A stretch of 64,000 bases of DNA from contig JAGIQG010000016.1 in the NCBI GenBank assembly GCA_024679065.1, forward strand, positions 12,648,001 through 12,712,000, given 5' to 3'. The notes under the pieces were generated by a model. It saw nothing but the letters and a program-made list of their open reading frames with translations, was not told the DNA's origin and did no database searches. Positions 3,335 through 59,690 of the stretch are shown here, piece by piece. The stretch is from Sphyrna mokarran. Its lineage: Eukaryota. The first letter of the stretch is position 1. The number at the start of each line of letters is the position of its first letter. The translations under genes were made by a program, and so were the position numbers.

Positions 3335-5960
3335 AGCGTGGGAATTCCAGGAAATACATCGCATTGATGTGGACTTGTCTGCTGAGGTAGTGTGGGCTGA
3401 GATTAGAAACAAGAAAGGAGAGTTCACACTGTTGGGAGTTTTTTATAGGCCTCCAAAAAGTTCCAGAGAAGTAGAGGAAGGGATTGCAAAGTTGATCCTG
3501 GACAGGTGTGAAAGTAACAGGGTAGTTGTAATGGGGGACTTTAACTTTTCTAATATCGATTGGAAAAGCTATAGTTCACGTAAGTTAGAGGGGTCAGTTT
3601 TTGTTCAATGTGTGCAGGAAGGTTTCATGACTCAGTATGTAGGTAGGCCAACAAGAGGTGAGGCTTCATTGGATTTGGTATTGGGTAATGAACCAGACCA
3701 GGTGTTAGACTTGGAGGTGGGTGAGCACTTTGGTGATAGTGACCACAATTCGGTTACGTTTACCTTAGTGATGGAAAGGGATGGGCATGTACCGAATAAC
3801 AGTAGTTATAGCTGGGGGAAAGGTAATTATGAGGCTGTTAGGAGAGATTTAGGATGCATAGGATGTTGCAGGATATTGCAGGGGCTGGGGACATCTGAAA
3901 TGTGAAGCATATTTAAGGAACAGCTTCTGCATGTCCTTAATGAATATGTACCTGCCAGGCAGGGAGGAAGTTGTCGAGTGAGGAAACCATAGTGTACTTG
4001 GGAAGTTGAATCTCTGGTGAAGAGGAAGAAGGAGGCTTATATAATGATGAGACGTGAAGGCTCAGTTAGGGCAATGGAGAGCTATAAATCAGCCAGGAAG
4101 GAGCTAAAGAGAGAGTTGAGAAGAGCTAGAAGAGGACAGGAGAAGACGTTGGCGGATAGGATTAAGGAGAATCCTAAAGCTTTTTACAGGTATATAAATA
4201 ATAAAAGAATGGTAAGGGCAAGATGAGGGCCAGTCAGAGATAGCAGTGGGAAGTTGTGCGTGGAGCATGAGGAGATAGGAGAGACACTGAATGAGTATTT
4301 TTCTTCAGTATTCACGCAGGAGAAAGACAATGTTGTCGGGGAGAATACTGCGATACTAGGTTGTAGACTGGGCAGGATTGAGGTTCATAAGGAGGAGGTC
4401 TTAGCGAATCTTGAGGGTAATGAAAATTGATAAGCCCCCTGGGCCAGATGGGATTTACCCCAGGATTCTCTGGGAGGCTAGAGAGGCTTTTGCAGAGCCT
4501 TTGGCTTTGATCTTCATGTTGTCGTTAACTACAGGTATTATGCCGGGGAACAGGAGGATGGCAAATGTTGTCCCTTTGTTCAAAAAGGGGAGTAGGGACC
4601 ATCCTGGAAATTATAGACCGGTGAGCCTGACTTCTGTTGTGGGCAAGGTCTTGGAAAGAATTATAAGGGATAGAATTTGGAAGCATCTAGAGAGAAATAA
4701 ATTGATTAGGGATAGTCAGCACGGTTTTGTGAAGGGTAGGTCGTGCCTCACAAAGCTTATTGAGTTTTTTGAGGAGGTGACCAAAGAGGTAGATAAGGAT
4801 AAGGCAGTTGATGTAGTGTATATGGATTTTAACAAAGCGTTTGATAAGGTTCCCCATGGTAGGCTACTGCAGAAAGTGCAGCTGCATGGGATTGAAGGTG
4901 ATTTAGCAGTCTGGATTAGGAATTGGCTAGCTGATAGAAGACAGGGGGTGGTGGTTGATGGGAAATATTCAACCTGGAGTGCAGTTAGACGTGGTGTACC
5001 TCAAGGATCTGTTTTACTGCTGATTGTCATTTTTATAAATGACCTAGATGAGGGTGTAGAGGGTTGGATTAGTAAATTTGCTGACGATACCAAAGTGGGG
5101 GGAGTTGTAGACAGCGAGGATGGATGTTACTGTTTGCAGAGGGACGTAGATAGGTTGCAGAGCTGGGCCGTGAGGTGGGAAATAGAACTCAATACGGATA
5201 AGTGTGAGGTGATTCACTTTGGTAGGAATAAAAGGCGTATGAAATATAGGGCTAATGGAAGGACCCTTAATAGTGTTGTCGAGCAGAGGGATCTTGGGGT
5301 ACAAGTCATGTCTCTTTGAAAGTTGGCACCCAGGTTGATAAAGTTGTTAAGAAGGCGTACGGTGTGTTAGCTTTTATTGGTAGAGGGATTGAAATTAGGA
5401 GCCGTGAGGTTATGTTACAACTGTACAAAACTCTGGTGAGGCCGCACTTGGAGTATTGCGTACATTTCTGGTCACCGCATTTTAAGAAAGATGTGGAAGC
5501 ATTGGAAAGGGTGCAGAACAGGTTTACCAAGATGTTGCCTGGTATGGTGGGAAGGCCTTATAAGGAAAGGCTGAGGGACCTGAGGTTATTTTCATTAGAG
5601 AGAAGAAGGTTACGCAGTGACCTAATTGAGGCGTATAAGATCATCAAGGGATTGGATAGGGTGGATAGTGAGAGCCTTTTTCCTCGGATGGTGATGACCA
5701 ACACGAGGGGGCATAACTTTAAATTAAGAGGTGGTAGTTATAGGACGGATGTCAAGGCAGGTTCTTCACACAGAGGGTGGTGAGGGCGTGGAATGCCCTG
5801 CCTGCAGCAGTTGTGGACTCGCCACTTGGGGGGCATTCAAATGTTCGGTGGATAGGCATATGGATGATATTGGAATAGTTTAGGTTAGAGGGTCCACTGG
5901 CCGGCGCAACATCGAGGCCGAAGGGCCTGTACTGCGCTGTAATGTTCTATGTTCTATGTT
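3335..5960 (+). mobile_element. CR1 (HER1-like) LINE, 5'-truncated, ORF2 (APE endonuclease + RT) broken by stops and frameshifts
   Basis: ORFs 3369-3905 (YRPP, MGDFN, LDLVL, SDHN endonuclease motifs), 4411-5319 (PGPDG, NYRPVSLTS, KAFDKV, GVPQGS, KFADDTK) and 5316-5783 (LYKTLVRPHLEY). 3' tail 'GGCCGAAGGGCCTGTACTGCGCTGTAATGTTCTATGTTCTATG'. Confidence 0.96.
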
Positions 5961-10490: not shown

Positions 10491-12511
10491 TAATTATTTT
10501 TAATTGTTCTTTTATTTTTTTTAATTTATCTTGTCTACTTTTTGTTATTTTCTCAAGTTTACCTCGTTATCAATACAAATTCTAACCAGTATTTAAGTGG
10601 ATTTTAAAATACAATTCAACTGCCTGTTAGTCAACCAAACCTCTGTGATATCACTTTTAGCTTTTTTAAAAAAAAACAAATACAGTGTCTTAATTCAGGG
10701 AATCAGCAGTAGTGTTTCGTACAACTCATCTCTTTCCGTTGTGGCTTCAGCTGGCTATTTCAAATTACTCCCCGTTTCTGCCAAACTCCAAAACACTCTC
10801 ACACCGTCAGGCACTACTCACCCTGCAGACAGAATAGCAATAATTTGTTTCTGCTTTTATAAATTTTAACCTGCAATGCTCGTTTGATTCAATTATACAA
10901 TTGAGCAGACGGAGTTGAATATCTTTTAGTCTCAGAGTAAGAAATCATAGACATTATCTTGCTGTAGAAAGTTTGGAGAGCTGAGAGGTGAATTTCAAAA
11001 TGTTTGAGAGTATTGTTGAAACAAAGGAGGCCGTGGACTTGAATGGAAGCCTCAGAATTTTAATCTGCATGTACGCATTGCCAGCGGAATATACTGATCT
11101 GGAGTTGAGGTTAGTATGGGAGTTTAGCAAAATGGAGAATAGTGGTATTACTGTTTCCTGTTCCATACTTTGCACTTTGAGGGACATTCCAAGACCAGAA
11201 TAAAACATAGTTACGATAATATGATAAGGTTCACTTGGCACTTTCAGGGACATTCCAAGACAAGGCTAAAATATGGAGTAAAATCACTCTGAAATTTTGG
11301 AGATCCAGATAGGCAGACACAATGATATGATGCAAAGAAGTGAACACCACAGTGCCATCATAGGAAAACTATAACAACATTGGTTAATATAAACCGAATT
11401 TAAAATGTCCTCTCTAAATTACTGTCAGATAAATGTTGAATAGATGAATTATAAGAAACTAAAAAAAAATCAGGATAACATTTAATAGAAAATTGAAACA
11501 AAATAGTGATTCGGGGTCAGTTGATGATTTGTACCAGGATTGATAGGCTGGTAGCCTGGGCACACAGATGGCAGATGGAATTCAATCCTGATAAATGTGA
11601 GGTGATGCATTTCGGGGGAAAGAATGTAGGGGAAAGGTATATGATAAAGGGTAGACCTATTAAGAATATAGAAACGCAGAGGGACGTGGGGGTGCAGGTG
11701 GACAAGTCTCTGAAGGTGGCAGAGCAAGTGGAGAAGGGTGAGAAGAAAGCATATAGTATGCTAGCCTTTATAGGAAAGGATATAGAGTACAAGAGCTGGC
11801 CTTTAATTTTGCAGTTATATAAAACACTGGTTAGGCCTCATTTGGAATACTGTGCCCAGTTCTGGTCGCCTTGCTACCGGAAGGACGTGAGGACTCTGGA
11901 AAGAGTGCAGAGGAGGTTTACCAGGATGCTGCCTGGTATGGAAGGTCTGAGTTACGAGGAGGGGTTAGGCAAATTGGGACTGTTTTCCTTAGAGTGACGT
12001 AGACTTAGTGGAGATGTAATAGAGGTGTACAAGTTTATGAGGGGTATAGATAGAGTAAACAGTGTTAAGCTTTTTCCTGGGATGGACTCGAATAGCACGA
12101 GGGGTCACGGGCTTAGGGTGAGGGGGGTAAGGTATAATTTGGATGCTAGAGGGAGTTTCTTTCACACATAGGGTGGTGGGGGTATGGAATGCGCTGCCAA
12201 GTAAAGTGGTGGAGGCAAGTACTCTGGAGTTACTTAATAAGTACTTAGATAGGCACATGAACAGAATGGGAATGGAGGGGTATAGAAAACTGATTTAAAG
12301 TAGGGATCGTGAGCCTTGGGAGTCCCTGGGAAGTGTGTAAATAGATGATGATATTGATGTACTTGTTCTTATCCTACAGGTGCCTTGGTCCACCTTGTTG
12401 TCTAACGAGGGGCATACACGCGATGGATCGTGAGAGGACTCCTGTTGGGCCTTTTTCAAGAGTATCCTACTGCTTCACATCGTTAGTGTATGCTTGACCT
12501 GGACCATCTGA

Positions 12512-12705
12512 TGGGCAACATGACAGCGCAGTGACTATCTGCACTGCTGTGCTGTGCAGATACATGGATTTGGGCCTGAGCCTGTGGTAGTTTGCGCATT
12601 CTCCCCGTGCTTGCGTGGGTTTTCTCCCGGAGCTCCGGTTTCCTCCCACATCACAAAGATGTGCTCTTAGGCTAATTGGCAAAACAAATTCTCCCTAAAT
12701 TGTCT
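12512..12705 (+). mobile_element. HE1-like SINE domain (degenerate tRNA head + central domain) inside the CR1 3' UTR
   Basis: 'GTTTGCGCATTCTCCCCGTGCTTGCGTGGGTTTTCTCCCGGAGCTCCGGTTTCCTCCCACA' is the same central domain seen in the free SINEs at ~32195, ~40812 and ~59348. Confidence 0.85.
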
Positions 12706-12750
12706 CAAATTTGGTTTTTAATCCATAGATCTATAAACATGGACAGGGGT

Positions 12751-12884
12751 AATGTATTTGTTGTAGTACCTATCATGGCCTCGGCGTAAAGCCGCCAGCA
12801 TGCCGTTGGGTGTGATATCCCGTGCAGTGATCCATCGGGAAAGTTCCCCCAGCTTCATGTCCATCAACGCTTCTCGGCGACAGG
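12751..12884 (-). pseudogene. ATP5MF: Fragment of ATP synthase membrane subunit f coding sequence, probably retro-processed
   Basis: Minus strand reads PVAEKR/(1-nt frameshift)LMDMKLGELSRWITARDITPNGMLAALRRGHDRYYNKYI. This matches subunit f as I recall it (human ...KKLLEVKLGELPSWILMRDFSPSGIFGAFQRGYYRYYNKYINVKK). Start, C-terminal transmembrane part and stop are missing. Confidence 0.9.
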
Positions 12885-13782
12885 TTGAAGTGGGAACATC
12901 GAGGTGGCGGCGCGGGCTCGTTGGGCCGAAGGGCCTGTTTCCCATGCTGTTTTGTTCTTTGTTCTTTGAAACATATGAAACTTCTGTACACCATGAGAAT
13001 GAGAAGGAATTCAACAAGTGTTGTATTATAGAGGAACTATGGCTAAAAATTATGATTTGGTGCCAGGTCCACAAATATGGAGATGTGTCAGGGAAGGGAG
13101 CAGTTCAATTGAGGCTATGTTTCAGAAGACAATCAAACCGCAAAGAATAACAACCATGAATTCGGCAAGTAGTCATGGGAAATATACAGTGATTACGACT
13201 CAACCAGGAAGAGAGATCCACACGCTTGCGTTACAGAGACTCCACCCTTGTCCATGTTCAAACGCTTTGTGATTCATGGACACTATCCGCAGAATTCTGA
13301 TCATAATGCCATGGTATCAGAAAGAATTCAGGTCGGGTTAGAAAGATGAATTATAAGTTAATTAATGATCCGTTACTTTTAGAGATAGACAGTATACACT
13401 TTGGGCCTGATAGAAATTCCGTTTATATTGTCCGGCCACTGCCAGTGTTCAGAACATCCAAAATAATGCTCAGAGAACTGATGAGGGATGAAAATATGGA
13501 TTGTTGTTATACTGAATGAATGAGCGCAGCCAGAAACTACATTACGTGACATAACAAAAGCAATAATAATAATATCTAAACGACGAGATAATTCCTATGT
13601 GTCAATAAGAATATAGAGGCAAATGCGTGGTTCAAACTTTCGCGTAAGGGAAATGTATTCCATTTATTGATAAAATAACAACCGAATATTTCACTTAGGA
13701 GCATCCCAATTGAATCATATTGGCACAAGTGTCCAGGTAAATCGCAGAACTCTGATGATAGAGATGTTTTTTTTATAAACTA

Positions 13783-20463: not shown

Positions 20464-22344
20464 CTGTAAAGTTAAAATATATTTATATTCTGAAATTTCA
20501 ACTGCAGAGAAGAATACATTTGCTAACATGGCTGAATGTCGAGCACTCACCCATTTTGTTAGATGGCTCGAAACTTAAGCTATACAATTGCACAGGTGAC
20601 TTCAAATTTCTGTCGTTGACATTCCTGTTACTTCGCTTCACTGAGAGAACTTTAACGGCCAGACCAATGTGGCTCTCCGATTGAAGGGTGTCCTTGTCAC
20701 CTATTCGACTTCGCACACATGACTTTGCAGAAGATCAGAGTCTACACGAAAGAAAACGTCTCGAAGTTGACTTGTTATTGAAAGGAAATATGTTCAGGAT
20801 GAATTATTTACCACCCTCTTTCGAGATATTTCGGTTTGTTGCAATGAATTGAATTAATGACATGATAGGAGTGCACCCTATCAGTTCATTTCATGCATAC
20901 ACCACTGACACGTTTTAATTCTCATGTATCATTTGCGTTCGAAATGGAAAAAAAAAGTTCGGAAAATTGCACAATGTCACTGACTAAATTAAATGTCTTC
21001 TGTTTGCAAAATTCCGCAGAAAACCTGCAACTCGGTGGGATTTTTTAATCCATATTTTCTAGTTCTCTTCAATGAATTGTACATTTGCTTTCAACATTTT
21101 GTTGTTAGATACGGGGAATGCATTCCAACCTATGGTGTTCATTCGTCTCCTTTAACATTAATTCTAAAAAGATGTATTCTTCGACTAAACGTTAGTTATT
21201 CATTGTTGCCTCTTCACCTATCTCTTTGCTGACCAATGTTGTTGACATAAAACAACAGAGGTTGGTTACTGTCTGCATTGTACTCTGCAAATTGACTTAT
21301 AATTGTGTGGTTGTTTCCATATTGCTAGCATGACAATCAGCTATGTGACAGTAATATTTAGTTAAACTCCTTAAGCAGTGTTATTTTCAAGTTTCTCCAT
21401 TTCCTCTACTGTCATCCTAATCGTGTTTTCCCCTAAACATCAGTTTAAATGTCCCATTGAAAATCAGAATGTAAAATTCTGCGATTTATGAATGGACTGT
21501 GTAACTATGGATACAAACGTTCCACTGGAAAATATTGCAGGGGATGGCTGACTGAGTCCAGTCATGTCGTTCTCCTTTCGTATCTAGTCGACAAGGGGGA
21601 GGACAATGGCTGCCAGCTATTTTGGGATGTGCAATAGATTGGAGGTCAGCAGGATTCAGAGGATATACTTGAGAAGGTGTCGGCTTGAATGAATTTGTGC
21701 CATGTATGTGGTCAACCTGGTGGGTGAGGGGGGGGGGGCAAATCTCATCATGTGGTGGGACTTTGTGTGGGCAATTTGAATTCTAATCGCTGCTTGAAGT
21801 CTATTCAGTTTGACGCGTGTTGGTTCTGACAAGTGTTTGGGTCGGGTGGAGGTTCACGTTCCTCTTCGGGATGGTATTTTGGGGGTTCATGCGCTTCCAG
21901 GAGGATGCTGATGCAGTCACTTCTCGTAAGGTGGATCACTTAATCGGACTGCGCCGCGGTAGCGTTCATGCATTCAGGGCTGTGTGCTGCAATGTCGCAT
22001 ATTCGGAAATATGCGCGAGAAGCTTAGAGTTATTTCGATGGAAAGGATTGGATGCTGAGTGATATAATCGTTAGGAATACCATGGGGGTCGAGGCGTTAT
22101 TTTGCCGAATGTTGGCATTGTGGGCTGGGCACAGCATTAAGTATCCATTCATATTTGCTCTTCATTTCAGGCTGCACTTTAGATTCAACTGTTACTTTGG
22201 CGGATCTGGAGCCACATTTGGGCGAAACTGGAAATAAATGCCTATTTAACTTCTCTAGTGAAGTAGTTTTGTGTGTGTGGGGCGGGGGGGGGGGGGGGGG
22301 CAGCATGGGGCGGGAGTAAATGACGATATTTTTTATGGTCATCT

Positions 22345-23749
22345 TGGTCGTTAAGAAAGGGAACAGGGATAGTCCAGGAAATTACTGACCTGTGAGTTTG
22401 ACTTCAGTGGTTGGTAAGCTGATGGAGAGGCTTCTGAGGGATTTGATATATGAACATTTGGAGAAGTTTGGACTGATTAGGAATAGTCAGCATGTTTTTG
22501 TCAAGGGCAGGTCGTGCCTTACGAGGCTAGTTGAGTTCTTCGAAAATGTGACTGAACACATTGACGAAGGAAGGGCGGTGGGCGTAGTGTACATGGACTT
22601 TAGTAAGGCGTTTGTTAAGGTCCCACATGCAAGGCTTCTGGAGAAGGTGAGAGCGCATGGGATATAAGGGGCTTTGGCTTCGTGGATCCAGAACTGGCTT
22701 GCCGGCAGAAGGCAGAGAGTGGCTGTGGATGGGTCTTGTTCTGCATGGAGGTCGGTAACCAGTGGAGTGCCCCAGGGATCTGTTCTGGGACCCCTGCTGT
22801 TTGTCATTTTCATAAATGACCTGGATGAGGAAGTGGAGGGATGGGTTAGTAAGTTCGCCGACGATACGAAGGTCGGTGGTGTTGTGGATGGTCTGGAGGG
22901 ATGTCAGAAGTTGCAGCGGGACATAGATAGGATGCAAGACTGGGTGGAGAAGTGGCAGATGGACTTCAATGCAGATAAATGTGTAGTGGTCCATTTTGGC
23001 AGGAATAATAGGATGAAGGAGTACAATATAAGGGGTAGGAGTCTTAGCTGTGTTGTAGAGCAGAAAGATCTCGGGGTCCGGGTCCATAGGACTCTTAAAT
23101 CGGCCTCGCAGGTGGAGGAAGTGGTCAAGAAGGCGTACGGTGTACTGGCCTTCATTAATCGAGGAATAGAGTTTAGGAGTCAGGAGGTAATGATGCAGCT
23201 CTATAAGACTCTTGTCAGACCCCAGTTGGAGTAGTGTGCGCAGTTCTGGTCACCTCATTATAGGAAGGATGTAGAGGCTATTGAGAGAGTTCAGAGGAGA
23301 TTTACAAGGATGCTGCCTGGATTGGGAGGCAGGCCTTATGAAGATAGGTTGAGGAGCTGGGACTCTTCTCACTGGAGAGACGTAGGTTGAGAGGTGACCT
23401 GATAGAGGTTTATAAAATGTTGAGAGGAATAGATAGGGTGGACTCTCAGAGACTATTTCCCCGAGCTGAAATGGTCATTACGAGAGGACACAGATTTAAG
23501 GTGCAGGGAAGCAAATACAAAGGAGATGTCAGGGGTAGGTTTTTCACTCAGAGGGTGGTGAGTGAATGGAACCGACTGCTGTTGGAGGTTGTTGAGGCAA
23601 ACTCACTGGAGTCTTTTAAGAGACTTCTGGATGAGTATATGGAAAAGAATAGGATAGGGGGTTATAGATAGGTCTGTGGATTGGTATATGTGATCGGCGC
23701 AACTCGTGGGCCGAAGTGCCTGTTTGTGCTGTATTGTTCTATGTTATAT
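22345..23749 (+). mobile_element. CR1 LINE, 5'-truncated RT and C-terminus with tail
   Basis: ORFs 22392-22667, 22674-23234 (GVPQGSVLGPLLF, KFADDTK) and 23387-23671 (RGDLIEVYK, FFTQRVV.EWN). Tail 'GGGCCGAAGTGCCTGTTTGTGCTGTATTGTTCTATGTTATATG'. Confidence 0.96.
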
Positions 23750-31900: not shown

Positions 31901-33825
31901 GAAGGACTTTTTTTCATTATTTACCGTTGAAACAAAATTACCTCATTTTTTAAACTTTCTTTATTTTCACCCTGCTGTATCTGGGTAATCTTCATCAACA
32001 CAATTCAATTCAATGATTTATATTATCAACCAGCCTGTCTCTAGATTGTCCACGTTCCATCATTTCATCAACGTCTGTCGGATTTTATTATAATTATTAT
32101 ATATCAATGCCTGATTTATTTCCTAGGGTTGAATCTCTTTCACGACATTTTTTGTTTGTGTGTGTGGCGGGGTAAGTGGTGTGTGGTGGGAGGGACAGCG
32201 AGCAGCAGGGTAACACAGTGAATAGCACTGCTACCCAAAGCGCCATGGAACGAGTTTCGATTTCCGGCTTGGATAACTGTGTGGAATTTTCAGCTTCTCC
32301 TGGTGCCTGTGTTGGGTCCCTCCTTTTTTTGTGTGTTTACTCCCACAGTCCACGTATGTGCGGGTTATGCAGATTGGCCATGCAAAAAGTGTGCTGTCGA
32401 ATCAATGGGTGTGCAGGGTAAATGCGTTGGGATTTGGGGAGAAGACTTGGTGGAGTTCTGTTCAGTGCAGACTCAAGGAGCGGAATGGCCTCCTACTGTA
32501 ATTTATGATTCCTTAAATCTTTGTGATTGTCCCTACTAAATACAATGAAAACATTTGAGGTCTTTCATCTCTTTGGCAGACTCTTGAGTGCCTTTATTCA
32601 CTGGAGGTAAACTGTTGCCAGTGTGAGCTAAATTCTGTTTCTTATCATTGAATAAATTTTCTTTTTCTTCTCAATATCGATCCAGCACACATTCAAATTG
32701 TTGCCAGCAAACAAATTTGTGCACTAACGTGCAGGCATTCATCATTTCTACAGCTCTTGTCGCTGCGTTACTTCTGTTAATTTTATGTTACTCAACATGA
32801 ATTTTATCACTCCTGAAAGTTAGTTTTTAAATTTCCCCCAGCATTATACTATCACCAAGGCTTGCTTATGTCTCTTCCATCTTCAATGCTCTAACACATC
32901 TATTGAAGTTGTACTGTTTAATGATTTCAACCTCGATACATATCTGATCTAGTTACTTCCTTAAACTTCGGTATCGTTTTATATGTGCTTCTGGTAGCAA
33001 TTGTTAAGGACTGAAAACGTATATCATCACTTCCTCATATCTTCCTGTCATCTTCCAAAAAAGCATAGCCTTCAGCAATGCCTAACAACATGGTGTGAAT
33101 TAACCCATACCTACTGTGGTGAGCTCAACTGTGCAGCCAATTCATTTTTCAATGGATATTAAAATCATACCTGTGTGTTTTTCATCAAATTTTAGACATG
33201 TGTGGACATAGTTGCATGTATCTTTGCCAAGCGGTTGCAAGGGCGACACTGCTGGTTATCTGTTCGACATGGTACTCATCCTTCTGTCATTTCAAATCTT
33301 CTTGATTCAGCATCCAAGTTCAGATTTCTCTGAAACAAGCCACCTCGACTGTTCCCTTATTCTTCTGCTGGAACTTCTCTTTTTTTTTTTCTCTCTCTCC
33401 CCTTTATCTCTCTCCTTCTCTCTCTCTTTCTCTCCCTCTTTCTTTCTCTTTATTTCGCTTCTGCATTCTTCTATTTATTTTTCCCCTTTTGCCAAGCTTC
33501 TAGCGCATAATTCTACGTTCACGTTCTAACTAACAGTCTTGGTTGCTTTTATGTTTTGTTTTTAATTCCACTGCAGCAGACTGTTTATCGGATATAGTTA
33601 AATGTTTCGTTACAATTAGAGATACCTTATTACCTATGCATAAACTCAAGACGCCTGTTTGCTACTTCTACGTTTGCCATCTTTGTCCTTTCTCTGAAGT
33701 GTATTTGTTTATGTTGGCAAGTATCTTCAGCACAAAATCTCTTTAACATTGCTAATAAACATTTAATCACTTTGAAGCATTTCAAATCCAAGAATGTTGA
33801 GATCCCAGACCCGAGTCCACAGCAC
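28960..33825 (-). mobile_element. Decayed Gmr1-type Ty3/Gypsy LTR retrotransposon internal region (gag-PR-INT-RT-RH)
   Basis: Minus-strand motifs in order: tRNA-Pro-like PBS (33802-33821); E/K/R-rich gag then 'LLPEAHIKRYRSLRK' (~33450-32830); PR 'VPLCKIRL..LIVGV..GND' (~31900-31720); INT 'MRKTHAK..FYWPRLH', 'IPAFEELFS', 'EIQSDQ', 'YHSDSQGALESWHQT', 'DPYLIEKKL', 'YVNMLKP' (~31260-30280); RT 'PKPYDTLRFCVDY*KINALTKS.PFLIPRL', 'LAKAEFVKAGVTFLG' (~29940-29440); RH 'RPIGYF', 'STLE' (~29400-28980). Confidence 0.88.
32195..32520 (+). mobile_element. HE1-like tRNA-derived SINE inserted in the Gypsy element
   Basis: tRNA-like head 'ACACAGTGAATAGCACTGCTACC...GTTTCGATTTCC', central domain and tail 'GCGGAATGGCCTCCTACTG'. 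Confidence 0.8.
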
Positions 33826-33960: not shown

Positions 33961-35479
33961 GAACAATAAAAGTTCATCGCTGTCAAAAAATACAACCAGG
34001 CTTGGTGTCTTTTGAAATCTTTAGGATTTCTTCCGTGTACCCCCTCTGTTGGTGAGTTATTTTGTTCTTTTTGATTTGATTGATTTTGGTGTTTTGCTGG
34101 TGTGTTCTCGTGAGAGATATGGACAGCTGAAAGGATAGAGAGCTGTACTCTTCCTCTCCACCTGCGAGGTGGGTTTTGCTGACCCCTGAGCTCCGCTTGC
34201 AATCGCGTTTATCCCTGTGGTTACCTGTATTTTTTTGTCGACAACAGGATAGTTCAGTTCGTTTTTCCCCAACATCATCACATTCTAATTCTATTGGTTC
34301 TTGTATGGCGGGTGTTTTCATTAATTGATTAGGAAAAATCGACTATTCAAATGCCTGAGACATTTTGCAATGGCAAAACCGTTTTCTGGTCTTGGATTTC
34401 TATATAAATGATTCATTTTGGACCTCTTTAATACTTAGTAATTTAAGTCTCTAAACACTGAAACCAAAAACTGCTTTTAAAGTGGCCACATAATGTTTAG
34501 CCGTCAAATATTTTCTCTACGTTCTTTTACTCGTTATAAACTCAACAGTCGAGTACTGACAACTTTCGTCTTAAGAATCAAACTGATATGAGCTTGAGTT
34601 GGAATTCTGAACTCAAAAAGATACAATAGTCACAGTTGCATTACATCATGCAGTATTGAGGAATGAATGAGCTCTAATTGTCTTCTACACTTTCCTTCCG
34701 TGGCACGTGATTCACCCCTTTCCCAATAACCATGTTCGCACATGATTTCCTTGTTGTTGAACTCAAAATGTGCTGTTGTGCGAAGATTTCAGAAACATTA
34801 CTGAATCATTTCTTACTTATGTTCTGGTCATTACCATCAAAATCTGTTTTCGATTGCGTAAATCCCCTCTTCATAGCTACTTTATTTCATTGCGGACTAT
34901 GCACATTTTGTTTCATCATATCCTTAACAGTATTTAAAATAATGAGGGTACTGCGTGCGGCATAGCTTTTTTTTTGTACTAGCCAAATATATTGCGTCCA
35001 TGAATCAGCTGGAAGAACTTTTTCCCAATAATGAAATATTCTCTTCAAGGTAAACCCTCATCCTCCCTGTTTTCATAACAGGCAATGGGTCGCGAATACA
35101 TTGCATCCACTCACATCTTATATTCATTCCATACCTCCTGAGAAGGAGTCATTAACATCCAGCACTGTACAATTCTGCAGTCATTTGATGATTTGTATTT
35201 TTGTTTTAATTAGCACACGATGGCTTGCATATCAAATGTTATTCTGAATATTCCTGCTGTTATCTTATGGTATTTTTTTTTATTCCGTTGTTCTTACCAA
35301 ACTAGTTCTGTTCTTCCCCACTAACACTGCCAAATAACCCAGTCCGTGATTTGTTCCGAGGATGTTTAGATTGAATTGCAAACGTCAGGTTGACAAGTTT
35401 CAATGTGTTGCTTGAAATATTTCTTGTAATGGTATGAGACCATCGCTGTCTTTCAAAAGGCAACCACATAGCTGTACGT

Positions 35480-36780
35480 ACCTGATGGCGCCCATTCACT
35501 CTCGGAGAGGATTGCAGTAAGGTCGGCCCTCTCCAGCTATCTGTATTCTATATGCATGGAATTATTCCTGCATCTCTTGCGGAGGAGTTTGTCGTATTTG
35601 ACCCTGCGCGACCCAGGCGCAGAGGTGGAACTGTCCGCTTACGCGAATGATGTGCTCCTCATGTTCACGGACCTGACTGACCTGCGGAGGATGCAGAATG
35701 TCAGCTGGTGTATTTCGCGGCATCCTCTGCCAGAATCAATTGAGCCTAGCGTTCCGGGCTCCTGGTCGGTCCGTGGAAGACAGACCCCCTTCTGGAGGAC
35801 CTCACGCCTTTCATCTGGAGCAGGATCAACCTCCTCCAGCGGATGGTCCATCTCTGCCCAGCGGAGGAAGCCTAACCAGAGAACTGGCGGTAGCTGGAGG
35901 CCAAAGTCATGGCCGCCTGAGCCGCTAAACGGGACTGCTCCAAGTTTTGCCCTACTGGGCAAGAATTCTTATTACAAATCAGTTGGTTGCTTCTATCTGT
36001 TTTACCTGCTGGTCACTATGACTTCTCCCCCTGATTTTGTCGCTAATATGCAAAAAGAAACCCTGCGTGGTTCTCCTGGGACAACCGACAGTATTGGGTT
36101 TCTGCCAAGGTTCTGCATCGCCTGCTTGAGGAGGGAGGCCAAGGTCTCGTGTGAATTCTCACACAGGTAGCGACCTTCCGCCTCCAGACCCTGCAGACAT
36201 ACATTTACATCGAGCCTACTCTACGATGGCGTGTCCTGGCGACGTATTTGTTCCGTCAGTTGCACGGCCTTAATTATGACATACTGCTCCCGCATATCAT
36301 CTTGAGGCTTATTCGAACCTCCTTTTGGGAGTTGTTGGTCTTTGATCCGAAACTCCTCACGATCTGGAACCCCGTTCACATAGCAACGCAGCTCTCCCCG
36401 TCAGGAGTAGCGGCTCTCCTGTGATAGCGGCTACTTAGGAATCCGCAGCTCCAGCCCTACAACTTCAGGTAGCTGGCGGAGAGTAGGGTCGTGGACGCCA
36501 GGGTGATCAGGATCGGGGACGTGCAGGATGAAGGAGCAGCTAGAGGCTGACCGCACGGGGGTGGCCGTGTGGCGCGCGGGATAAAGGCAGTCAAGAACTT
36601 GCGACGGTCGTCCTCTGCCCTGAGTGTGCGCACATTACTTATCACATTGTTATTTGATGTTTTATGTTCCGTTTCAACTTTGTTTTTTGTTCGGGCTGTC
36701 CCCTTTTTAAGGAGCAGCCACTTTTAATCTGTCCCTAAGTTAATTGGTGTTTGTGTATTTGGTTGATATGAAAAGAGATA
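35480..36780 (+). mobile_element. Tx1-type (L1 clade) LINE 3' fragment with internal deletion
   Basis: Decayed RG..QG.PLS..LYS.CME.FL.LLRR and 'LSAYANDVLL' (LSAYADDV) RT motifs, GC-rich body, and a T-rich 3' UTR ending '...GATATGAAAAGAG'. Confidence 0.8.
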
Positions 36781-37995: not shown

Positions 37996-40811
37996 GAGAA
38001 TAAGTATAAATAGATTTTCATTCATTCACTCGCTCAAGCCTGGGATGGTCTCCAAAAAGTATATTCAAACGATGATGAACTCATACGTACACTCAGTGAG
38101 GCAAATACTGAAAAGCTAATGCAACATGCAGCATATTGAATAGATTACATGCTTAATAACACAGGCTTTCAAATCTTCATGCTGTGCTTCTGTTCCATGC
38201 ATCCTATCAGCGCACTAATCCTCCACGTCCCTCCTGAATAATCTCCTCCCGAGCCCGTTATATTGATAACTTCACTCACACATGATCAGTCAATCAGCCA
38301 TACACAATCATCTCGATTTACCATGTTCTAGAATCAATTGTTCTTGTTATTACGTGCAGAGGACTGTGAGTCGCTCAAACTTGGTTTTGAAAAGGAATAC
38401 TGAATCTTAACATGAATTCAATGCATTTAAAACTGAACAGATGAAGGAATGAACCTGATTGCAGCGAATAAATGTTCCCTAACTAGTATCTCAATTCATC
38501 GGAAATACTCGCTGAATGGTCGGAGAAAAAATGTGAAATAAACAAAATGTCAATTTTCTGCCAACGAGAAAGGCATTTTTTGTTTTTTTATCTGGTGAAG
38601 TACTTTTTGATCTTAACTCTTCTTTCATTTTTTCCAGCTCTGAAACATTATCCATCATATTATTTCTTGTGTTTTTTTTCAGTTGTGTTAATCCGATGTC
38701 TACGTTGTCGTCGAAATAAATTACACGGCAGTTAATCTTCACTATTCCCAATAGTTTTCAACAAGTTTAGGTTGCGTGTACAAATTATGAAATACGTTTT
38801 CTTTAAATCAATATTCCCTTCAACAAATTAAGCAAAACAAAAATGAAGAAACATTTTGGCATTGAGCCAAAACTTCATTTGAATAGTCAGACCATAATTT
38901 GATCCTGAACGGAAAACTCGATGCAAAGTTATAATGAAATGTCATATGCTGATTTCAACGAGAGATTCTTGAATAGCTCACACAGGTCTCTCATTCAAAA
39001 AATCATTCTCTATAAATGTGAAAGTGAGTACCAGAGTGTACATCTGTCGCTGAGAAATGCGTACGATTTTCAGAAACAAGATTCTATTATTTTACCAGAA
39101 TATGTACCTAATATTGATGACAGTTGATAGTTGGGCTTCATTTTTTTCAGGCGAAGGAAAGTACGAAAACTAATATCCCTGGTTGCAGAAAACAAGGAAA
39201 CTAATTCGGGGAGATGGAAATTGATTTAAAAAGGTAAACATAGGAGAGGACATGAAAAGCGCATTCTGTTCGTGATGTTCAGTGTACGATTGGCAACCGG
39301 AACTAGACATGTTAATTGGTGGAATCACAGGCAGCTCACAAAGCTATTGCAGCGTGTACTAATTATACTCTATCTTTCACGCGTGTCCTAGATGCTGAGA
39401 ATGGATACACTGAGTTGTCGTTAGTGGGAGCGTTAAATAAATTAAATGTTGAAATTATGTCTTAAAATTATCAACAACATGTGATAACATATTGCTGATT
39501 ATTGATCAATAGACAATTAATTGTTATTTTGCAAACTGTATGAAATAAAAGCAAAGGGAAATATTGTTTTTGTCCTCATTAATTTGACTTCGATTATCTG
39601 GTAATTGCAACGCAGGCTTTTTTTCCAGGCCTGTTATTATTTGTTTTGTTTTTGTTCTGAACGTCAGCACAAACATGTCCGTACTTCAATCGTTAATATG
39701 TTTCAAACATAGAACTTGATGAGAGCCTCATGCCAGCCCTCACAATGAACGAGGCATAACTTGCAATAATGTGGCGAAAATGTTTCCTGCGTACCAGATA
39801 CCCTGCGTGTTTTCAAAACAATGTGAGCAGGACTGTCTGTTGACAAACCACATGCCAAGATTAACTCTTCTTAGCCCCATACGGTTTTGTGTGCCCCGCC
39901 TGCCTCACGGAATTGTTATCTGTAAAGGGAAAAAAAGCAAATGTCAGCACTCGCCAACAACACGACGAAACTGTTTTATGTTAACTGCAGAGAAGGATTC
40001 ATTTGCTAAAAGTGGTGAATGTCAAGTATAATCCATTGTAATAATTTTTTGAACTTGAGCGATAGAATGGCTGATGTGACGTAGAATTTGTGTCGCCAAT
40101 ATTCTTAGCACGTTCGATCACTTAGAGGATGTTAATAGACAGAACATAATGGCACTCAGTGTGGCTCACCCAACTGAAGATTGCATTTGTCACCCTTTCA
40201 GAGCTACACATATAATTTTACAGCTGATCAGAGGCTAACATATAGAAAATGCCTAGATTTTTTTTTTCTCTTTCCCACGTGAAAGAAAAATTCTGCAGGA
40301 TTAATTTGCCATCCTCTTTCAAGGCATTCAGTTTTGCTGCAATAAAATATCGGTAAATTAGTTTCATGATAGGTAAGTTATATCAGTTGAATTTCACTTA
40401 TCCTTAATTTTAACGTGAATGTAACAATTCAGTTAGAACACTTGTTCTTACAATAAAAAAATAGAAAGGATCAAATAAGTTCCGGGAATGTGACTAAATG
40501 TCATTTAGTCTTCCATTTCTGGATTCGCCCAGAAGCACATCATCACATTGGGAATGTCTGAATCCATATCCTCCAGTTTCGCTTCATGGTGACCGGTCTT
40601 TGATGAATTGTGCATCTGCTTTCAACATTCTGTATTTATGCAGGAGAAATACACTCCGAACTCTGGCGTTCACACGTCACCTTTAACATTGATGCTAAAA
40701 GATTGTTTCTTTGACTAAATATGTCACTGATTTTTGCATATTTACCTGATCAATAACTGCATATGTTTGACGGTGATAGTTATTCGCAGAGCAAATCCGA
40801 TGACTTAATTG

Positions 40812-41040
40812 AACGGCACTTGGCACAGTAGGTAGCACTGCTGTTTCACAGCACCAGGGACTTGCATTTGATTCCCAGCTTGGGTCACTGTTTGTATGGA
40901 CTTCGCACATGATTCCCTGGTATGTTCCCTCTAGGTGCTCCTGTTTCCTCCCACAGTCGAGAATTTGTACTGATTAGTTGAATTGACCTCAGCGGGTGTC
41001 TTACTGTGGTGAATAGGGAGATTTCACAGGAATTCCATTG
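40812..41040 (+). mobile_element. HE1-like tRNA-derived SINE
   Basis: Head 'GGCACAGTAGGTAGCACTGCTGTTTCACAGCACCAGGGAC...TTGATTCCC' plus central domain 'GTTTCCTCCCACAGTC'. Confidence 0.85.
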
Positions 41041-50055: not shown

Positions 50056-50390
50056 AAGAGCAACACAGCACGGGAAACAGGCCCTTCGGCCCAACGAGCC
50101 CGAGCCGCCGTCATAACTATATAGTAGCAATTCCATTATCCTATTATAGATTTAGGTTATTCCTAATATGGAAGACTCTCACTATAGGGACAATTTGTTT
50201 CCCAATCAGCCTAAGAGCGAAGTTTTTGGTTGTGGGAGGAAACCGGAGTGCCCGGAGAAAACCCACGCAACCACGGGGAGAACGCGCAAACTCCCGCAGA
50301 CACCGGCCCAATTCCAAGTGTCTGCACAGCCACATCGATAGTCTCTGAGCTGTCATGGTGCCCTTCAGATGGTCCACATAAAGCACTCAC
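50056..50390 (-). mobile_element. 5'-truncated copy of the composite CR1 3' UTR / SINE-like element
   Basis: Same tail (CAGGCCCTTCGGCCCAACGAGCCCGAGCCGCC), central SINE domain and 'TCAGATGGTCCA' extension as 12470-12967. Confidence 0.9.
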
Positions 50391-52899
50391 TCAATTGTTC
50401 AATTGTTCAATAAGGAACCTAATAGCATTTTGTTTTCCTCCATAGAATGTTTTGTGTATATTTTGTTACGGAGGAAATAAAGTTGTATAAGAATCATGAC
50501 AGGCTCCTTTTTTGCCAATTTTGTTACGTTTTCATGAAGCTGAGTAACCGAATTGCTACCCGTGATTTGAGTGTTCTTTTGTAGTTTATCGGATTGTCTT
50601 CCATAATATTGTCATCACTAATTCTGCAGCAGCACTGAAAGGTCAGCAAATGCCACGTCCCAATGAATATTGAATCGATGCACAAATAGCTGCAGGCAGG
50701 TTGCACATTGTGCTTGATCTCTCTCTCTCTCTCTCTAAACCTGACTTTTATTGCCACGTGATCTTGAATGCGTTGGATTAATTTTGCTCATTTATAATTC
50801 ACATAAACATTCATCAAGGGTATACATGAAATTGGCGTTTGCAATTCTGACTTAAATTGTTCACACTGGAGCACGTTATTGGGTATATTCCAAAGAATAA
50901 TAATTTTCCATTGGATATGCAAATACCGTTGGAGGAATGGTGTGACATAATTCGGCTCCTCAGAAATGAATGTCAGAGTGCGGCCCTGCAAAATTTACGT
51001 CCACTATTGAGCGACGCTAGCAGACATATTGACAGTGTGTTCATGTGTATGTTTCTGCTATTTTCAGAGATAGTAGTAGTGAAGTTTTTGGAACAACTTG
51101 TCTCAAATTTTCAGAGAACTTCAAGACTTTATTTGGCAAACCACGACTAGTGTGGACGAATGATTTATTTTTTCTTACAACATTGAAGAGCATACAGACC
51201 AACTTATCTCGACGGTCTTGGAGGTATTTCTTCAATGCTTTAGGAAAAGCACTCTGCTAATAAAATGAAGGAGATTCAATCCACGTCTAGAATTCCGCCC
51301 AGTGATGGTGAGGAGCTTCTCGATAGTAATAAGGTTATTTGAGCTTAATGTGACACAGTTTCTTATCAATTCGAAATGACACATTATCAATATCATTGGA
51401 ACAGTTCGATTTATGACGAAACGTGAAGCATCGGGCGGAAATGAGCTGGGGAGTCATCGATGGCGATAAATTTATAAATGTCACACTAGAAGATGCATTT
51501 TTACTCTTTAATAAGTCTGTTGTCTGAAAATAGTGTGAAATGAATCTTCGCGGATACTTCTAAACTCGGTTCTGACTGTATTTTCTGCTTTGCAAGCGAT
51601 TATGAGCTGATTACACAACTGTGGGTCGAATAACATTGTTATTCTGAACGTCGTCTTAATGAAGCAAAATGATCAACTTAAGATCCACAACTAATTTCAT
51701 TTTTTTTTTTCTGTAGCATTGGTCATTTCAAAAATGTCAGGTCAGTCAAAATCCCAGTCCAAAAAACAAAGTAACAAGCTGAACGCTCGTAGCAGCTGAC
51801 ATAATTCAAAATCAACGCTGTTTATCGGAGGGATAATTGTCCAATGACAATGAAGGAATATATTATTGCCATTTTTTAGTATGTCGTGGTGATAAACTCG
51901 GTTGAATAATTGAGTAAAATTATAGTATTTTAGACTTTCTTCTCATTATCAATGAAACTTAAAAAAACGTGGCCTGAATACGGGAGCGTTCATCGCTAAA
52001 GGTTATCAAGTAATTCAAAGAATTCCAGGTCAACCATGTATCGTTTGATTAAATGCACAGCCAATCTCCAAATGCCAACCCAGTGAGGTGCAGAGAGGAA
52101 GGCATGTTTGTAGCAAATCTGCCACATGCAATTTGCAATTAATTATTAAGGAATATTCCTTTCATGTTGATATTCCTGAAAAAGTGAATGTTTTAAACTG
52201 GTCTGAATGATTTCAATAATAAAAATCGAATGTGCAAAAATACGAAATAAAGAATATATGACACATATGTACTGGAGTATCTCTTGACAAAGTTGTACCT
52301 GCAGCAAACGGTACAACCGAGATCAGTAAAGAGAACAATGACAATATTTTAAGAAAACAAAGATGTTTCTGACGTGGAGGATCTTATTCTACCCTGTGTC
52401 GACTTCTCACCCGCCTCGCAACCCGTGCCCCGCAAATAAAAATGCCCAACAGGCAGGAACAGTGGGGATTTTCTCTCTCTTTTTTTGGTGTGGCGGGGGG
52501 GGGGCGCTTATAATAGACCGAAGCTGTGGAACTGTCTCGGGGAGGCACATGTCAAAAACAGCGGGGCGAACTTCCTGACTACGCATACCCATCAACCGTC
52601 TGCTGTCCAAAGTCCACATCACCCCATTCCACAAACTGTCGTGCAAACTTTTATCGTCAGGACCTTGTGTAGCTACACCAGAAATTTGCAAAAAAAGCAA
52701 AAAAAAAATTGAAATGCAAGATTTGAGAAATATGTAACGAGTTAAAAAGGCATGCTGATTAGTTAAGTCGCTGCAAAAATGTGGAAAGAAATAATATGTG
52801 AAACATGAAGTTTGATGTTTTTGGACAGAAATGTCAATCTGAGACATAAATGGAGAAAAGCGGCAGAACCTGTATTATAAATTATCTTTGCGGAATTAT

Positions 52900-53540: not shown

Positions 53541-53639
53541 ACCAACTCATTTATGAGTAAACCTTTCACGTTTATATGACGGGCGGCACTGCGGCGCGGT
53601 TGTTATTATTTGCAACATCCAGAAAGCCAACACGCCACC

Positions 53640-54170
53640 AGTCGTCCGTCCCCTTATTTGCGAAAGGATATATTAGCCTTGGAGGGAGTACGGAAGAGGT
53701 TCAAAGGATTGATACCAGCGTTGAGCGGGGTCAGCTTATCAGGAGAGATTGCGTAGATTGGGCCAGTACTCATTGGTGTTTAGAAGGCTGAGGGGAGATC
53801 AGATCGAGGCATAAAACTTAATGAAAGTTGTAGACAGGGTAGAGGCAGAAAGTAAACAAGAACGAGAGGGCACAGCCTCTAAATAAGGGCGCGGGGGGTC
53901 AATTTTAACAGGATTGGGGAGGAACTTGTTCTGTCAGAGGGTAGAGAATCTTTGGAATTCTCTGCCCTTTGAAGCAGTGGAGGCTACCTCGTTAAATGTG
54001 ATTAAGTCAGAAGTAGATATGTTTCTGATTCATAAGGGAATTAAGGGTTACGGAGAGCAGGTGGTTAAGTAGAACTGTACCACTATCAGATAAGCTCTGA
54101 CCTTATTGAATGGAGGGGCAGGCTCGAGTGATCAGATGGCCTATTCCTGCTCCTAGTACTCATGTTTTAT
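53640..54170 (+). mobile_element. CR1 3' fragment with tail
   Basis: 'AGAAGGCTGAGGGGAGATCAGATCGAG' (RRLRGDLIE) and 'CAGAGGGTAGAGAATCTTTGGAATTCTCTGCCC' (QRV.NLWNSLP). Tail 'GATGGCCTATTCCTGCTCCTAGT'. Confidence 0.85.
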
Positions 54171-54960: not shown

Positions 54961-55337
54961 AAAGAACAAAGAATAAAGAACAAAGAGCAACACAGCACGG
55001 GAAACAGGCCCTTCGGCCCAACGAGCCCGCGCCGCCGTTCTAACGTCTTAATGACATATCCAAGACTTTAGGCTATGCCTATTGTGGAAGATTCCCATAT
55101 AGGGACCAATATAGGGACAATTTTTTACCCAATCAGCCTAAGAGCACATTATTGGGATGTGGGAGGAAACCGGAGCACCAGGAGAAAACCCACTCAACCA
55201 GGGGGAGAACGCGCAAACTCCCGCAGACACAGGCCCAAATCAATGTGTCTTCACAGCAACAGCGATAGTTTCTGAGCTGTCATGTTGCCCATCAGATGGT
55301 CCAGTTTAAGCATACACTAACGACTTGAAGCAGGACA
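54961..55337 (-). mobile_element. 5'-truncated copy of the composite CR1 3' UTR / SINE-like element
   Basis: (AAAGAAC)n tail, CAGGCCCTTCGGCCCAACGAGCCCGCGCCGCC, central domain, and the extension 'TGTCATGTTGCCCATCAGATGGTCCAG..GCATACACTAACGA..TGAAGCAG' matching 12470-12525. Confidence 0.92.
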
Positions 55338-57570: not shown

Positions 57571-59347
57571 ATGGAAATGCTGCTATATGATCGTACTTTA
57601 TTTCAGAATTATGCTTTGAATGTGAAGTATCGCCCAGTATTTTGCAGAAGTTTGGCCATTTCACGTCAAGGGATCTCTAGAAGGATGTCATGTTCACTAG
57701 AATCCACATGGAGTTTTATCAAATGCAATACGTCAGTGACTCAGAAGCTAGACTTCGTTTTGAATCTTGTCAAGTGCTATGCGCAACTATTGTTGTTATG
57801 CAAATGGAAACATTTGAACCGTCGAATAAATGTCAATTAAGATCTCAATTTCGGACTTTTTGTATTGCACTTTTTTCCAAAACAGGTGTAACTTCCTGTT
57901 ATACAAATTCATTTCCCTGAGACGAATCGTGTCCAATACTCACCTGAAATATTCTGCTGTCTTCGGGGTGAGTTTTTTTTCTGAATCTGCCTATGGGCCG
58001 AGGACTGTCCCGACCACAATTCTCGGCAAATCGAGCGACATTCAGAGCTTGAGCAGGTATGTTACACTCTTATATTTCATCATGGATTAAGATCTGCACA
58101 AATAGTAAATCCAGTTCACAAGTATATGCATCGTGCCCCTGTTCTGCCAAAGATATCCATTCATTACCATTGACTGCTTCTAGCGACTTCTAAATTTTGC
58201 TTCCATTTCAATTTAACATTTCTCTAAAATATTTGATGCCTACTTGTGGGCTATCTTAATAAGACATATAAATTGTCGTCTTATTTAGACGAGCTCCAGA
58301 GTGCTAAATTATTATAAGATATGCCGAAAGACATGATATTTTACCATTTGACTTAACCTGTTAAACTGCTCATTGTTTTGGATTTTAGTTCATTCAACTT
58401 CTATTTTTTTGTCTGGAAATGGAGCTACATTGTGACATAACTATGTTTATTTTAACACATTTCATTAATTTGTTGATATTTCGTGTTCCTTGGCATGTCT
58501 GGATTCAGATCCGAGGTTCAAATCACATTTAACTATTACAGAAAATACAGGTGGTATTACAGACCACCCACATAGTCAATAATCCAGGACCATTATTCCC
58601 AGTGTTTACTCGCGAATGCCATTTGTAGTTTCTCGGAACAAACTGACTTTACCCTGGACTTTGTCTATTCCAGAATTGATCCATAAGCAATATCTAACGT
58701 TTGGCTGCCGTACATCTGCATTTTGGGAGGATCACAATACTTTCTTGCTAGCCAATGCTGATGTCTATTTATAAAAAAAGATGAAACCTACAGGCTGCTT
58801 ATCATTCACTCCGGGCCCATTCCGATGCTATAGAAGAAAGCAGGAGATCAAGTCACCGCTACATTGATTCGTTTCGAATAGAAAGTTTTTTTTTAAACTT
58901 TTTTTTAGCGATGTGCCGAGGTTGAGTACAGTGCAATAGTTCAGTCAAAGAATTGGAATTTCACCTTTAGTTTTGGCTTCACATTTATTGATGACAATAT
59001 TTTAATGGATAAAATCTGGAAGTAGTTGCAGATATCACTTGCATGGAGATATGCATATTTATGTGTTTTGCATTGATTTGACATAATTAAATTCCACAAT
59101 AACCCCTGCATTTCGTGATATACATTCAGATTCTGCGCTGGCACACGCTTGAAAAAAACATAGAGCAGTCTGTGATTTTTTTTTCCAGAATTTGTGCAAG
59201 GTAAATGATGCAGGAGAAATGTGTTTTCTCTGTGTATTGACTGCATTTAACCTGAATGTAAGAATTAAGAACGATTTCAGTACAAGTGAAATTCTCTAAG
59301 CAGAGGAGATCAATTAATGATGGGTATATTCTTAATTGATACATTTG

Positions 59348-59690
59348 TGGCACGGTAGCACACTGTTTAGCACTGCCGCTTCATAGCTCCAGGAACCTGG
59401 GTTGGATTCACTTGCGCCACTTAGTGTGCGGAGTTTGCACATTCCCTCGTGTCTGCGTCGGTTGCCTCCAAGTGCGCTGGTTTCCTCCCACAGCATGAAA
59501 ATGTGCGGGTTAGGTTTATTGGCCGGGCTAATCTTGCCCGTAATTCTCTGAGATGCATATTTTAGAGGGGTTGGCGGGAAAATATGTAGTTATGTAGGGT
59601 TAAGGCCTCATTGGGATTGTGGTCGAAGCAGACTCGATGGCCCAAATGATCTTTTTCTGCAATGTAGTGTTTTTATGTTTCTTTTTATGT
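59348..59690 (+). mobile_element. Full-length HE1-like tRNA-derived SINE
   Basis: Head 'GGCACGGTAGCACACTGTTTAGCACTGCCGCTTCATAGCTCCAGGAACCTGGGTTGGATTC', central domain, and CR1-type tail 'GCAGACTCGATGGCCCAAATGA'. Confidence 0.9.

Follow-up and report, generated by a model that had tools for sequence, protein, structure and literature searches.

Within the window analysed here, a 64,000-nt stretch of the Sphyrna mokarran genome, the segment 11535-12967 (copy A) is a 5'-truncated elasmobranch CR1 LINE. It probably belongs to a high-copy CR1 family whose 3' UTR has captured a V-SINE block with a dead promoter. That the SINE-derived head and V-domain in this UTR move with the LINE as one unit is supported by level depth over the junctions, by contigs that bridge them, by heterogeneous flanks at the 3' end only and by a dead Pol III promoter. 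The modules of copy A lie in the order ORF2, 215-nt spacer, head, V-domain, 68-nt segment, 136-nt insert and tail (Table 1), and the block from ORF2 to the tail is predicted to form a single transcription unit.

Table 1. Modules of copy A and the two related short copies in the window
Feature	Position	Strand	Evidence
CR1 ORF2 3' third (RT end and C-terminal region)	11535-12298	+	Translations, 57-69% identity to shark/ray ORF2 proteins
Spacer, 215 nt, part of the family 3' UTR	12299-12513	+	Repeat-level depth; bridged to ORF2 in other copies
Decayed tRNA-type SINE head	12514-12583	+	Alignment with V-SINE locus L009; free-head profile; box scan
V-domain (conserved central SINE domain)	12584-12680	+	61-77% to three free V-SINE copies
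Family-specific post-V segment	12681-12748	+	Repeat-level depth; contig joints
Private ATP5MF insert, outside the family	12749-12884	-	Single-copy depth; Pfam; PDB
CR1/HER1-type tail: stem-loop and short T-rich repeats	12887-12967	+	Matches to copies B and C and to CR1 tails
Copy B: spacer end, decayed head, V-domain, different post-V segment, tail	54961-55337	-	Sister lineage
Copy C: same layout as copy B, starts ~15-30 nt further 3'	50056-50391	-	Sister lineage

The coding part of copy A places it among the CR1 LINEs. Its translation starts at 11536 and ends at a TAA stop codon (12296-12298); in between, the frame is interrupted by a stop near 11998 and shifted by one base near 12159. Homology to CR1-clade ORF2 extends over the RT and C-terminal regions. 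Among 310 candidates, 93 relatives were found at E <= 1e-30, the best of them at 66-69%, and a tree of 31 rows placed the piece on a long branch in a group (99/95) with shark and ray proteins and the CR1 copy at 22345-23749. No Pfam family was found for this short ORF2 piece. The 5' truncation point lies at about 11535-11542; other copies, seen in contigs of public sequencing runs, run on 5' of 11542 in ORF2-like sequence, and copy A is therefore 5'-truncated. ORF2 scans of prokaryote contigs returned one short irrelevant match, and those of viral contigs none. Two CR1 ORF2 proteins of shark-like type that are recorded as bacterial (P0090 and P0092, on contigs of 1.6-3 kb) are most likely host contamination of bacterial assemblies. 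Elsewhere in the window, a 232-codon open frame at 35472-36170 (+), for which Pfam gave no family, reads by eye like the decayed reverse transcriptase of another LINE clade, and another old repeat occurs in two copies (20500-21219 and 39983-40747) that are 65-74% alike in two blocks.

It is the 3' UTR that sets copy A apart from its neighbours. At the DNA level copy A is 66-68% identical to the two other well-kept CR1 copies of the window (3335-5960 and 22345-23749), whose stops at about 5883 and 23671 are followed by the end of the element some 80 nt later. These distances, obtained by translation and alignment, bear out the sequence-only reading, which had placed the tails of both copies within about 100 nt of the end of ORF2. 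It had also put about 670 nt after ORF2 in copy A, and the distance from the stop at 12298 to 12967 is 669 nt, as against the short UTR of the neighbours. Since the insert at 12749-12884 is private to copy A, the UTR of the family comes to about 540 nt. Tail-like sequence directly follows ORF2 in four other CR1 copies of the window; two of the four, judged by eye, are older copies that the sequence-only reading did not name, at 53610-54165 (+) and about 8734-6375 (-). As in CR1 elements, copy A ends in a 3' stem-loop with a short tandem repeat and has no clear target-site duplication: the longest repeat shared by its flanks is 5 nt, lies off the ends and is not convincing. Upstream of copy A, a 42-nt sequence occurs twice in direct orientation within 11167-11274 (66 nt apart, 86%), and 8597-8635 matches it in part.

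Evidence that these modules form a repeat family came from public sequencing runs, 20 of which contain part of the stretch. Contigs of four of them (X1, X2, X9 and X10) were aligned at 85% likeness, and summed depth, which does not equal copy number, was used only to tell repeat from single copy. Run X1 matches both flanks without difference at a depth of 14.3-14.7 (flank range 14-25). Its summed depth rises to 1.25-5.0 million in ORF2, 2.5-3.0 million over the spacer and head (12260-12579), 5.8-6.6 million in the V-domain and 7.5 million in the tail, from 193,038 contigs. Run X2, which carries another organism label, shows this profile too, with 21,908 contigs. The contrast between element and flank is thus about 100,000-fold over ORF2, spacer, head, V-domain and tail. 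Runs X9 (85 contigs) and X10 carry the element at trace depth only, and for this reason we make no claim about host range or horizontal transfer.

The junction between ORF2 and the spacer decides whether the LINE and the SINE-derived block travel together. The block could instead be a SINE-like family that starts at or near the ORF2 stop and landed beside a tail-less CR1 at this locus only, a coincidence that we consider highly improbable. Bin depth does step up at 12260, in the bin that contains the stop, by 1.5-fold in X1 and 1.8-fold in X2, and no listed record spans the whole element (32 of about 131,000 pieces were listed, and some X1 pieces are uncounted). Part of this rise is explained by private differences of copy A clustered at 12218-12251, and site-wise depth is alike across the stop, at 1.7-2.2 million over 11962-12090 and 1.55-2.6 million over 12300-12384. 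Moreover, 3 of the 32 pieces listed run across the stop and extend 31 letters or more to either side of it. They come from three runs (X9 record 31, X10 record 14 and X2 record 23) and have 20, 5 and 15 letters that are not those of copy A, which makes them other copies of the family; one of them is an unbranched path of 503 nt (11916-12419). At the listed variant sites the same majority letter holds on either side of the stop, and none of the 24 loose ends listed, out of 1863, falls at 12299, 12470 or 12514. The boundary between spacer and head is crossed by one listed piece, which extends only 25 letters past 12514. At the other end of the element, heterogeneous flanks start at 12968, where 586 unrelated flanks were found with an agreement of 0.37. 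A SINE inserted beside a tail-less LINE was the case that the sequence-only reading had itself set as its refutation, and repeat-level depth, the bridging contigs and the lack of a listed 5' end at the head all contradict it.

The spacer, described earlier as some 210 nt of unique or structured sequence, is indeed present, at 215 nt, but is neither unique nor specially folded. Its X1 depth is 2.6-3.0 million compared with 14 in the flanks, and its folding (z = -0.99) was equalled by 32 of 200 shuffles. This comparison, together with the Rfam search, in which no meaningful family was found in 11400-13100 or in the head of the free copy D, leads us to reject the spacer as a structured RNA. It was also considered as a decayed original tail, and comparison with four tails gave nothing significant (285-1489 of 2000 shuffles). 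The last 30-55 nt of the spacer are common to copies A, B and C. A pyrimidine-rich run at 12355-12381 (+), ending CAG/G, resembles by eye a splice acceptor; the spacer could come from a gene, or the UTR could be spliced.

The proposal that a SINE head and central domain lie in the 3' UTR held up in comparisons with free V-SINE copies. Three such copies, decayed, with tRNA-type heads and without ORF2, occur in the window at 59345-59670, 40815-40990 and 32200-32500 (all +); the second seems to lack a tail. With a profile matrix built from their heads, the heads of copies A, B and C each reach a score that none of 200 shuffles attains, and of 384 window tiles only 1, 0 and 1, respectively, score higher. 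Against the head of L009, a fish-type V-SINE locus, 12514-12537 is identical at 17 of 24 positions, and the differences are 7 transitions and no transversions. Pairwise homology is weak, as copies B and C show no significant match to free copy D, and copy A owes part of its score to 5-6 nt inserted near 12540 in this copy alone. A hidden Markov model of 49 mostly invertebrate heads missed copy A and also the positive control, free copy D. Mean head identity between composite and free copies is 56% (9 pairs), compared with 67% among the free copies (3 pairs), and the corresponding V-domain values are 69% and 70%, both from a small and decayed sample.

The head retains a remnant of the A box and is about 15 nt shorter than free heads: the distance from A box to V core is 58-63 nt in copies A, B and C and 72-77 nt in the free copies, and which letters were lost is ambiguous. 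Free copy D has a B box within one substitution of the consensus, whereas no match within two substitutions was found in copies A or B, and copy C has only one off position. ARAGORN predicted 0 tRNAs. A run of four T can stop Pol III, and such a run lies in the V core of copies A, B and C; it was found in 4 of 123 metagenome V cores. The composite thus lacks the intact A and B boxes of a V-SINE head. It is also no independent unit starting at the head, since there is no depth step and no listed loose end at 12514 and copies B and C extend upstream. The head is a relic, in keeping with a SINE that travels within the transcript of another element.

The central block at 12584-12680 is what we take to be the V-domain. 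It fits the descriptions given in PMC4824008. A central domain of about 80 nt is present, as judged from the free copies of the window and L009 rather than from a published consensus; copy A aligns with L009 across it, and identity among copies A, B and C is 85-88%. The V-core pattern was found at 122 metagenome loci and 1 viral locus, none of which matches copy A outside the V core or carries its ORF2, and a head-specific pattern matched 0 stretches in the metagenome and viral contigs. Loci L001-L122, mostly from one marine metagenome assembly, belong to an abundant SINE of invertebrate type, present there as host DNA, in which the A and B boxes are intact and the V core is represented by its 3' half.

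Copies B and C, read earlier as truncated copies of the composite LINE, share its decayed head and 30-55 nt of its spacer, but have a post-V segment unlike that of copy A and no ORF2 upstream. Copy B matches 12470-12702 at 84.6% over 234 nt (E 6e-69; tail 95%) and copy C matches 12485-12697 at 80.8% over 214 nt (E 1e-51; tail 93%), so that both extend 5' of the head, as first reported. Head identity between copy A and copies B and C is 87-89%. Behind the V-domain, B and C are alike (0 of 2000 shuffles), and neither resembles copy A there (822 and 340 of 2000). Copies B and C are thus a sister lineage of copy A, and they likely arose by 5' truncation.

Alternatively, these short copies could be a separate non-autonomous element, derived from the composite 3' UTR or ancestral to it, with a preferred 5' end near 12460, dependent on outside promoters and mobilised in trans. 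We hold this possibility tentatively; it is compatible with a composite LINE for copy A and competes only with truncation as the origin of B and C. Their 5' ends lie only some 15-30 nt apart, their post-V segment is common to both and absent from A, and depth in X9 steps up at 12452 from 38 to 173. That step is absent from X10, and from X1 and X2 (about 10%). Directly upstream, B and C resemble each other over 28 nt. In 60-nt windows, chosen after this similarity had been seen, 26 of 2000 shuffles do as well; in 200-nt windows 1399 of 2000 do, so that it is not significant there, and it does not run on into the rest. Neither a Pol III promoter nor target-site duplications marking a defined unit were found in these copies, of which there are only two.

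What had been called a variable segment before the tail is mostly a private single-copy insert; the part at 12681-12748 belongs to the family and is absent from B and C. Depth over 12749-12884 is 21 in X1 and 0 in X2, X9 and X10, and contigs of the family join 12748 to 12883, 12887 or 12890, with about ten letters between. On the reverse strand the insert codes for part of ATP synthase subunit f (ATP5MF; Pfam PF10206, E 1.3e-8; PDB subunit f structures, E 9e-12) that is 88% identical to a shark protein, with a one-base frameshift near its start. Of 65 homologues 53 were scored, and 29 of these stop at one common glycine, as expected of open frames taken from unspliced genes, whereas the insert reads straight through. 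The insert would thus most likely be a cDNA patch from spliced mRNA, running across an exon junction. It looks like a product of RNA-templated repair or twin-priming.

The tail matches those of copies B and C and, weakly, both neighbouring CR1 tails. Its scores to the CR1 tails are 58 and 66, compared with 43 to the tail of a free SINE. An inner hairpin is predicted in the tail just as in both neighbouring CR1 tails, and is not above shuffles. We presume that 12887-12967 is the recognition site of the reverse transcriptase. The SINE-derived block is present, as described above, but the earlier wording, of a LINE that took on a SINE for its 3' end, may go too far, given that the terminal tail is closer to the neighbouring CR1 tails than to the free SINE tail. 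A further weak tail-like match lies at 2477-2520 (-; E 0.017).

CR1/L2 LINEs are described as recognising their tail and copying by target-primed reverse transcription (PMC3747384), and from this known working we infer how the composite would have arisen and spread. A founding copy of a high-copy HER1-like CR1, in a shark or ray, would have gained the spacer, the V-SINE head and the V-domain between its ORF2 stop and its tail. The resulting master copy would be transcribed from the LINE's own 5' promoter, and the ORF2 protein would bind the tail hairpin and prime reverse transcription at that site. Copying would then proceed through V-domain, head and spacer into ORF2, and variable stops would leave staggered 5' ends.

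The modules would have flowed into the LINE from a SINE: the head is what remains of a promoter, V-SINEs are by far the older, and the block is missing from related CR1s. The reverse, with head-like and V sequences native to an old CR1 3' UTR lineage from which the shark V-SINEs derived, is very unlikely. In other clades SINE bodies did originate from LINE UTRs (PMC5786205), and the tail here is of LINE type. Nevertheless, a decayed tRNA-type promoter stands in the right place before the V-domain, V-SINEs with intact heads are reported from cnidarians to fish (PMC4824008), and the ORF2 nests within elasmobranch CR1s, whose member in this window has a short UTR. For a SINE-to-LINE capture we favour, with about even confidence, a template switch or an insertion just upstream of the LINE's own tail. 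No significant old tail is found in the spacer, the tail is nearer to CR1 tails, and the region before the tail has been replaced between lineages and appears mRNA-patched in copy A. Read-through into a downstream SINE, which should have left an old tail in the spacer, is conceivable though rather unlikely.

Each component has known relatives among elasmobranch elements. HE1 is a V-SINE and HER1 its partner LINE in sharks and rays (Ogiwara et al. 1999, 2002, as listed in PMC3747384 and PMC4824008), that is, a CR1-type LINE and a tRNA-headed V-SINE with a common 3' tail, and the composite contains modules of both kinds. As these papers describe them, HER1 and HE1 are two separate elements of which the SINE borrows the tail, whereas the composite carries head and V-domain within the LINE 3' UTR, with the Pol III promoter dead. 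The composite shares the tail of a V-SINE's partner CR1 LINE, yet lacks the promoter and the independence of a V-SINE; it behaves as a CR1 and belongs there.

Comparable exchanges are known from other systems. In Alu/LINE-1 chimeras (Law and Burns 2026, PMC13174262), a template switch or RNA ligation links a SINE to a LINE within a single retrotransposition event, mostly in sense orientation. By analogy, this would be a likely route of capture for the composite, but those chimeras are 452 single insertions in mammals and not an amplifying family. The MER6 MITE with a headless V-SINE (Luchetti et al. 2019, PMC6887750) likewise carries a V-domain as transposon cargo after promoter loss; its carrier is described as a non-autonomous Mariner DNA transposon, in contrast to a coding LINE with the V-domain in its RNA. 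Kojima (2018, PMC5786205) compared Repbase SINEs with LINEs and reported SINE bodies from the UTRs of RTE and Vingi LINEs. Module exchange between LINEs and SINEs is seen there in Ingi-3_AC and R4-1_ADi, with a Ceph-like piece, and in RTE-1_DAn, with a tRNA-like piece; in the excerpted text the direction is from LINE to SINE or the location is the 5' UTR, and a CR1 with a V-domain in its 3' UTR is not reported. LP-SINEs are described as having taken the 5' end of a LINE as their head (PMC4758252).

Excerpts of PMC13343379, PMC5499810, PMC11481361 and PMC10468316 do not describe a composite LINE with an embedded SINE domain. In the literature searched, we found no description of a CR1 with a V-SINE block in its 3' UTR. 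The element is probably present, unremarked, in automatic repeat libraries, and the consensus table of PMC13343379 may contain it.

It is still an open question what has preserved SINE central domains such as V over hundreds of millions of years. One speculative and rather doubtful proposal is that selection preserved the V-domain within the LINE RNA after the promoter died, with a role in the RNA of the retroelement or in its protein complex rather than in Pol III transcription; its capture may then have helped this CR1 to become one of its host's most abundant elements, and the 3' end may in turn have spawned the B/C elements, a path from SINE to LINE and back to SINE. The identities given above, reduced between composite and free copies for the head but hardly for the V-domain, hint at such selection in a few decayed copies. 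According to a 2016 paper, LINEs do not contain SINE domains of this kind, and the CR1/V-SINE family would be a counter-example, showing a flow of modules from SINE to LINE. Many matches to the V-domain in such genomes will be mis-annotated as SINEs. By separating the V-domain from Pol III transcription, this family makes the role of the domain testable.
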